A stretch of DNA of 64,000 nt from Leucoraja erinacea (lineage: Eukaryota): contig NC_073380.1 of assembly GCF_028641065.1 (NCBI RefSeq), positions 55,738,001 through 55,802,000 on the forward strand. The letters are read 5' to 3'. The notes below the pieces were generated by a model. That model was not told the DNA's origin. It ran no database searches and saw only the letters and a program-made list of their open reading frames with translations. Shown piece after piece: positions 30,144 through 30,659 of this stretch (position 1 is its first letter; each line of letters opens with the position of its first letter). The position numbers and the translations under genes are program-made.

Positions 30144-30291
30144 AAAAGATAAAAGCAATTCAGTCAATTCAAGATTTTTTTTCTTTATTGCCAGATAATA
30201 CAATGCATTTGGTGATACAAAACATTCATGAGGTACAGTAATTCAGTTCCAAGTCACCATGAAAATAAATTGAAGGCCTGAAGCCCATGAT

Positions 30292-30323
30292 CAAAGATAC
30301 TAGAGGATCATCTAGTATCTTTA
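30292..30323. mobile_element. 32-bp palindromic insertion with 8-bp TSD (candidate DNA-transposon excision footprint)
   Basis: cccatgat|caaagatactagagga-tcatctagtatcttta|ccaatgat. Confidence 0.65.
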
Positions 30324-30659
30324 CCAATGATTAACATCAAGGTTCAGAATTGGCACAAAGTTGATACAATGCAATCCCTGGGGATGAACAAAGGGACACA
30401 ATCAAAAAATTATATATTTGAAGTCAGGCGATGATTGTTGCTGACATTATCAGCTGTCCTGAGTTGATGCTTGAGTCAACACCTCATTATTTACCCTCCA
30501 TCAACGTGAGATCTTTCTAACCCCTGTGGCCATATTCTAATTCACACTAAGTCATATCCACCTGTCTGCCCTCTGCTCTCTTATCTGCATAGCCTTTGGT
30601 TAAACTACAGCTCAACTTTAACATTTTCATCCTTGTTCTCATTCAATTAAGTGCAGCAC

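Follow-up and report, generated by a model that had tools for sequence, protein, structure and literature searches.

A dated 32-nucleotide hairpin insertion from a widespread family, read as a probable end-joining scar of a P-type transposon

The sequence between positions 30292 and 30323 of the window (the whole stretch of 64 kb that was analysed) is a real, dated insertion, one of a widespread family of very short insertions that form hairpins, and it is probably the scar left by end joining at the donor site of a cut-and-paste element of the P superfamily. The insert is 32 nt long and folds into a 16+16 hairpin, and the 8-bp direct repeats on either side of it are identical at 7 of 8 positions; two of the 16 possible pairs of the hairpin are mismatched, viz. 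30305/30310 and the terminal pair 30292/30323. The sequence and coordinates reported for the hairpin and its 8-bp repeats in the original prediction (30284..30331) proved accurate when the sequence was read again. As single-stranded DNA the insert gives a folding energy of -8.8 kcal/mol (z -4.0), with none of 200 shuffles as good, and it is located in non-coding, single-copy DNA about 24 kb from a C2H2 zinc-finger exon (5211-5960), which we take to be odd-skipped-like. The features of this insertion, the left arm of which is likely to represent the outer end of the terminal inverted repeat of a transposon, and those of a sister insertion in the same window are listed in Table 1.

Table 1. Coordinates of the hairpin insertion, its target-site copies and the sister insertion
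Feature	Positions	Strand	Observation
Left copy of 8-bp target-site duplication	30284..30291	+	Found once in X9 and X15, where the orthologous site is empty (joint 30286 to 30327, 40 skipped)
Left arm, 16 nt	30292..30307	+	AC at arm positions 8-9; same arm at other loci in all four runs
Right arm, 16 nt	30308..30323	-	Two departures from the left arm, at 30310 and at the terminal base 30323
Right copy of 8-bp duplication	30324..30331	+	One later substitution at 30326, where the X5 and X19 orthologues have C, like the left copy of the window
Sister insertion, a hairpin of 28 nt at 32411-32438 (15+13, arms of TA type) with 8-bp repeats (7/8)	32403..32446	+	From the sequence of the window and the hairpin scan

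The window was scanned for hairpins of 24-60 nt with 12 outer pairs and at most 2 mismatches, which are bordered by an 8-bp direct repeat with at most 1 mismatch. Of the 353 hairpins present, exactly two (30292-30323 and 32411-32438) possess such a repeat, and when the scan was widened to repeats of 7, 8 or 9 bp the same two hairpins and no more were recovered. In 100 block-wise dinucleotide shuffles of the window the mean number of such structures was 0.03 and the maximum 1, two being found in none of them; the possibility that they are no commoner than in shuffled sequence, which had been raised together with the original prediction, is thus contradicted in this window. The two hairpins have 13 of the first 15 arm bases in common and differ at arm positions 8-9 in both arms, so that their internal difference is mirrored, as had been claimed. 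No paralogous empty site for either hairpin was found within the window. An Rfam search of the region 29500-33000 gave 27 matches, of which none fell on either hairpin and all were on a long palindrome (30863-31361), below the gathering score. This palindrome, a perfect 241-nt inverted repeat with a 17-nt loop, is inserted in a SINE-like repeat between the two hairpins; it shows no evident target duplication and its miRNA matches are sub-threshold only. Another palindrome, nearly perfect, about 170 nt long and without a loop, is located at approximately 34516-34687, at the right end of a repeat ending in a GATA run; no direct repeat is seen around it and its ends are unlike the hairpin arms. 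Of a larger repeat the window has two diverged copies, at 32200-32900 and 33860-34470 (72-81% in pieces), and the 32411 hairpin is contained within the first of them. A third arm-like pair in the window (60211-60298) has its arms facing outward and is without a duplication, and it was set aside as a chance occurrence. Further, the window carries a long LINE-type reverse transcriptase frame (35512-37959), pieces of a tyrosine-recombinase-type retroelement (39773-42257) and a CR1-type fragment (61743-62663), all three named by eye from their translations.

The orthologous site was sought in public runs using the 516 bases around the insertion as query. Part of the query was present in 20 of the 24 listed runs, which carry six organism labels apart from one row without a label, and the evidence on the orthologue comes from four of these 20 runs (X5, X9, X15 and X19), representing four other organisms, the other 16 not being used. 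In X9 and X15 the site is empty: one contig in each crosses it, exactly 40 bases (i.e. 32+8) are skipped, and the short side of the contig measures 145-146 letters. The insert is present in X5 and X19, in each of which one contig covers the whole stretch. Inclusive of the organism of the window, the site is therefore filled in three of five organisms and empty in two, and the independent insertion with target duplication that had been proposed is borne out by an empty orthologue in two of the four runs. The two carriers differ from the window by about 3% mismatches, whereas the two organisms with an empty site differ by 5-6%, and based on this difference and on the four runs compared, the insertion of 30292-30323 would most simply postdate the split of the empty from the carrier organisms. 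Because the X19 orthologue has G at the last base of the insert (30323), CA...TG were its original ends, and because both X5 and X19 have C at 30326, the two target copies were once identical. The state of the window at 30310 is also seen in the X19 orthologue. The X5 orthologue shows 17 mismatches (12 of them listed) and two extra letters that were not placed, and its hairpin junction may differ from that of the window. A second indel marks the same split: the 13 bases at 30427-30439 are missing in X9 and X15 and present in the three carriers. In all four runs a second contig, which continues in an identical loose end, also matches a 39-nt stretch (30174-30212) with 5-6 mismatches, and on this evidence the stretch appears to be a short repeat or a paralogous piece.

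All four runs also contain contigs from other loci, which match the hairpin only and whose loose ends are unrelated. Since arms with AC at positions 8-9 occur at other loci in all four organisms, inclusive of the two (X9 and X15) in which the orthologous site is empty, this arm type is a trait of a subfamily or family. The original prediction had assigned this hairpin to a second subfamily and had held the class to be abundant; the recurrence of the same arm type agrees with the former, and the class is indeed common. Most of the contigs from other loci have C at 30310, which makes the hairpin a perfect palindrome, and some have the A of the window. Their centres differ by +2 letters (X9 and X15), +4 (X19), -3 (X15) or 7 gaps (X9); a 34-nt form is present at another locus, and the +4 and +7 forms are known from gap counts, not letter by letter. 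The summed depth over the hairpin, compared with that over the flanks, was 21,373 vs 39.7 in X5, 175 vs 24.5 in X19, 350 vs 15.8 in X9 and 140 vs 11.1 in X15; these run depths are not copy numbers and are taken here to indicate no more than that copies are numerous in the organism of X5. One 32-nt contig in X5 reaches a depth of 5000, the single-copy flank having 39.7, and this suggests many identical copies and one dominant form.

Relatives of the arm family were also found in metagenome contigs, using a pattern consisting of the outer 13 bases common to each arm with up to 30 bases between them, which gives no sight of anything beyond 56 nt. At least 120 loci fit this pattern (the estimate is about 550), and among the matches listed there are 118 distinct hairpins, 117 of them with flanks long enough to be scored, whose lengths range from 26 to 55 nt under the ceiling of 56 set by the pattern. 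A 7-bp duplication (6/7 or better) borders 88 of the 117 hairpins listed, an 8-bp duplication four and neither of these the remaining 25; with swapped flanks as control, a 7-bp match at 6/7 or better was seen in 0.7% of pairs. Among these 117, AC or GT in both arms is seen in the four 8-bp cases and in no others, and one of the four has the AC type of the window. However, the relationship of duplication length to arm type is not strict, as the TA-type hairpin of the window has 8 bp, whereas the TA types in the metagenome loci have 7 bp. The two free arm positions are mirrored in 98 of the 118 hairpins, compared with 24.7 expected by shuffling. One of the loci (L050) has an empty paralogous site in another (L102), with a single 7-mer. 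Wherever it can be identified, the DNA at these loci is that of animal hosts, based on flanking ORFs for laminin N, Mab-21, mitochondrial ATP synthase d and reverse transcriptase (7 of the 83 locus ORFs of at least 110 aa have a Pfam match), and the loci have no repeats in common with the window except the hairpin. In the 7-bp targets of L001-L120, T at position 2 and A at position 6 are found in about two thirds of 176 strand-pooled sites. At one locus (L024:966-2015) a 29-nt hairpin and its 7-bp duplication, together 36 bases, lie in frame within a stop-free frame of 350 codons that has no Pfam match.

Ninety of the 117 hairpins were assigned to five groups (A-E), and among copies with perfect duplications the number of distinct centres is 18/19 in A (11 lengths), 15/15 in B, 11/13 in C, 10/11 in D and 4/4 in E. 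Many copies consist of one long arm joined to a trimmed arm, via microhomology or filler. The long arms show a ceiling: in group A there are 13 arms of exactly 25 nt among the 29 copies other than the 46-nt form, in group B six arms of 26 nt among 18 copies, with the full palindrome in none, and single arms of 26-27 nt are seen in groups A, C, D and E. Perfect palindromes of 42, 44 and 46 nt are present at several loci of groups A, C and D, that of group E having been mirrored by script and not observed. If the shorter forms were deletion products of the 46-mer with at least 3 bases of microhomology, then three such products are possible; those with a 25-nt arm, two in number, account for 11 copies, whereas no copy of the one with a 31-nt arm was seen, a split with a probability of about 0.01 if all were equally likely. 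Compared with unweighted random deletion the arm ceiling gives p ~0.05, and the presence of the 25-nt-arm products with the absence of the 31-nt-arm product moderately favours tails of fixed length. Two structures beside these hairpins were also seen. From position 220 of L110 there is a composite of about 100 nt, made up of a short arm, about 45 unrelated bases and a full 37-nt hairpin, with a perfect 7-bp repeat outside, which looks like a join with captured filler. Near position 232 of L026, with another hairpin about 50 bases away, a remnant of 20 nt, which comprises one arm and six bases of its partner, is bordered by a perfect 7-bp repeat, and due to this it is clear that remnants below the size of the search pattern exist.

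If the insert is a scar of a P-superfamily element, as we consider probable, then a longer element with these terminal inverted repeats would have inserted at the site and duplicated 8 bp, and its transposase would have excised it by long staggered cuts, of about 17 nt here, like those of Drosophila P, so that the outer end of each repeat would have stayed on the chromosome as a 3' tail. Host end joining would then have fused both tails, giving the 16+16 near-palindrome between the two target copies; the relatives with 7-bp duplications would require tails of about 22-26 nt. In Drosophila, P is cut with a 17-nt stagger at each end, leaving 17-nt 3' tails (PMC7776569; PMC10983969, both in excerpt), and repair of the tails of P{wa} gives the order duplication, arm, microhomology or filler, arm, duplication (PMC2895639, in excerpt). 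A scar of this kind would be a dead end that accumulates, because it would be without the inner transposase sites and its length would not leave a duplex after two such cuts. By computation, a 32-mer that is cut 17 nt in from each end has no duplex left, and as P needs binding sites inside its 31-bp repeats (PMC7776569, in excerpt), a P-type enzyme should not move the 32-mer.

Concerning the characteristics that a P footprint should show, the duplication is of 8 bp with both copies kept at the site in the window, and in the relatives it is of 7 or 8 bp in the proportions given above; the ends CA...TG are present in the X19 orthologue and in the 32411 hairpin, with A at 30323 as the right end in the window and the metagenome ends imposed by the pattern. 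The 16+16 and 15+13 hairpins of the window and the 34-nt form fall within an arm limit of 17 nt, whereas the 25-26-nt arms of the relatives are beyond it. The origin as a scar is supported by the presence of 7- and 8-bp duplications in one end family, linked to the arm type, and by the varied centres, even among copies with perfect duplications, and the membership in the P superfamily by these duplications and by the CA...TG ends. Against the origin as a scar stand the lack of a parent element in our searches, the apparently dominant 32-nt form in X5 and arms of 25-26 nt, which exceed the 17-nt tail of P; the apparent tail length, moreover, varies by group (about 22-26), and the perfect 42-46-nt palindromes could be master units. 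Of the proposal that the hairpin is a P-element footprint, the 8-bp duplication, the insertion and the commonness of the class have thus stood, and, with no parent or transposase found, the membership in the P superfamily is what we infer. The accompanying description of 16+16 as the classic footprint size was overstated, as in Table 1 of PMC2895639, which concerns Rad51-mutant flies, a 32-nt join accounts for 5/66 isolates and a 30-nt palindrome for 14/66 (summed here), and the relatives described above cover 26-55 nt. The 16+16 and 15+13 hairpins of the window and the 34-nt form are in agreement with the entries of that table.

The searches for a parent element gave no long element with these ends in the 64-kb window or in the 186,531 bases around the 120 metagenome loci, no P transposase domain (Pfam) among the 83 locus ORFs of at least 110 aa, and no full element at the orthologous sites in X5, X9, X15 and X19. 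The locus flanks yielded four extra arms, viz. the 20-nt remnant and the composite mentioned above, a further hairpin and one unpaired arm. Some candidates from other sources were attributed to chance: in viral contigs, three loci fitting the hairpin pattern, among them one phage-type stem without duplication, and 240 loci with single arms, of which 24 had loose inverted partners and none a 7/8 or 6/7 duplication; and in prokaryote genomes nine loci with one long arm, none with a partner. These search spaces were small or unsuitable, yet remnants clearly outnumber parents in what was seen.

The main alternative to be considered is that the palindrome itself is mobile, as a non-autonomous element of 28-50 bp moved by a transposase acting in trans, with a centre that erodes after insertion by hairpin cleavage and slippage. 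This explanation, to which we assign a limited likelihood, accounts for the failure to find a parent in the window, the locus flanks or the viral contigs, for the very high depth of one 32-nt form in X5 and for the perfect 42-, 44- and 46-nt palindromes at several loci, and the mirroring of the free arm positions in 98/118 hairpins is also in its favour, although it fits any subfamily structure. However, the nearly complete diversity of centres in copies with perfect duplications is at variance with the homogeneous size by which MITEs are defined (PMC3698922, in excerpt), the arms in asymmetric joins do not grow beyond one set length, no slippage product with an arm of 31 nt is seen, and the cuts of a P-type enzyme leave the 32-mer neither a duplex nor the inner binding sites referred to above (PMC7776569). 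A broader and rather tentative interpretation, which we rate somewhat short of even, encompasses both possibilities: one end family, present in a vertebrate and in unrelated animals, would have filled genomes with hairpins of 26-55 bases, either as scars that record the length of staggered cuts or as a mobile bare palindrome. In the former case the staggers would be clade-specific, about 17 nt with 8-bp and about 22-26 nt with 7-bp duplications, which is beyond the Drosophila P paradigm; in the latter case the bare palindrome would be far smaller than ordinary MITEs.

It is improbable in our view that the hairpin is instead a collapsed remnant of another superfamily (hAT, inclusive of hAT with 7-bp duplications), formed by aborted sister-chromatid gap repair or by inverted-repeat deletion. 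Duplications of 8 bp are typical of hAT and 7-bp-duplication hAT families are present in Repbase (PMC4455052, in excerpt), and excision is commonly followed by synthesis that is not completed and then by end joining (PMC2895639); however, hAT hairpins form on the flanking DNA, and their simple joining leaves no element ends (PMC3878927, in excerpt), whereas the arms of this insert are foreign, are not copies of the flanks and recur at other loci, unlike a hAT footprint. Aborted synthesis also predicts broad lengths, whereas the extra arms found are short and an arm ceiling is seen (the pattern being capped at 56). A local origin by template switching, i.e. a foldback with the direct repeat arising by chance, is hardly credible, although other long palindromes without duplications are plentiful in the window. 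The arms are not flank copies, the same arm is found at unrelated loci, and chance repeats are as rare in the shuffles (0.03 per window) and with swapped flanks (0.7% vs 88/117 observed) as described above. Further, as the empty orthologue is short by exactly 32+8 bases, the foldback without 8-bp duplication that had been named as the outcome contrary to the original prediction is ruled out at this site.

If the hairpins are scars, as we prefer to interpret them, then they show that a free P-type transposon was once active in a vertebrate lineage from which our searches gave no report of one. Excisions normally leave no trace, and with such scars they would become countable and datable; the arm ceiling would also reveal, straight from genomes and with no need of biochemistry, how long the stagger of a transposase is. 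If, on the other hand, the palindrome itself moves, then the lower size limit of cut-and-paste elements falls to about 30 bases. In either case, because the presence and absence of the insert splits five organisms 3 to 2, hairpin insertions of this kind are usable as phylogenetic markers. Titles and abstracts, in a literature that was mostly non-subscription and had the Repbase reports outside it, contained nothing on this end family or on fixed P-type footprints in cartilaginous fishes; repeat libraries in paper supplements may already list these ends.

Among known systems, the hairpins resemble MITEs, as excerpted from PMC3698922, in being short and non-coding and in possessing inverted ends, a target duplication and many copies. 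They are unlike MITEs in their length of 26-55 nt (the upper bound set by the pattern), in having no interior and in the heterogeneity of the centre even when young; as to homogeneity, the metagenome groups A (18/19) and B (15/15) consist nearly entirely of distinct forms, whereas the depth in X5 hints at one dominant form. With P, 1360/Hoppel and Galileo they have in common ends starting with CA and duplications of 7 or 8 bp, the superfamily showing 8-bp (P) and 7-bp (1360, Galileo) duplications (PMC3698922); unlike members of this superfamily, the hairpins found here are without a linked transposase. Vertebrate members of the P superfamily do exist, viz. THAP9 and zebrafish Pdre2, which has 13-bp repeats and an 8-bp duplication (PMC10983969). 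By the rule used in Repbase for non-autonomous elements, terminal bases 1-11 should be alignable to those of a classified family whose duplication has the same length (PMC4455052); the terminal repeat of Pdre2, as printed in PMC10983969, has only the first two bases and scattered others in common with the arms described here, and its excision in cells is accompanied by larger flank deletions. The closest comparison is with the excision products of Drosophila P{wa}, as given in the excerpt of PMC2895639. The hairpins differ from these products in their end sequence, in being fixed in the germ line and common to several species instead of resulting from repair in the laboratory, in the arms of the relatives, which reach 25-26 nt and not 17, and in that our searches yielded no parent element. 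However, as in the P{wa} products, both copies of the target are kept, the duplication is of 8 bp, the ends are CA...TG, and the outer ends of the inverted repeats are joined by 2-3-nt microhomology, bluntly or with filler, into near-palindromes of 30-34 nt.
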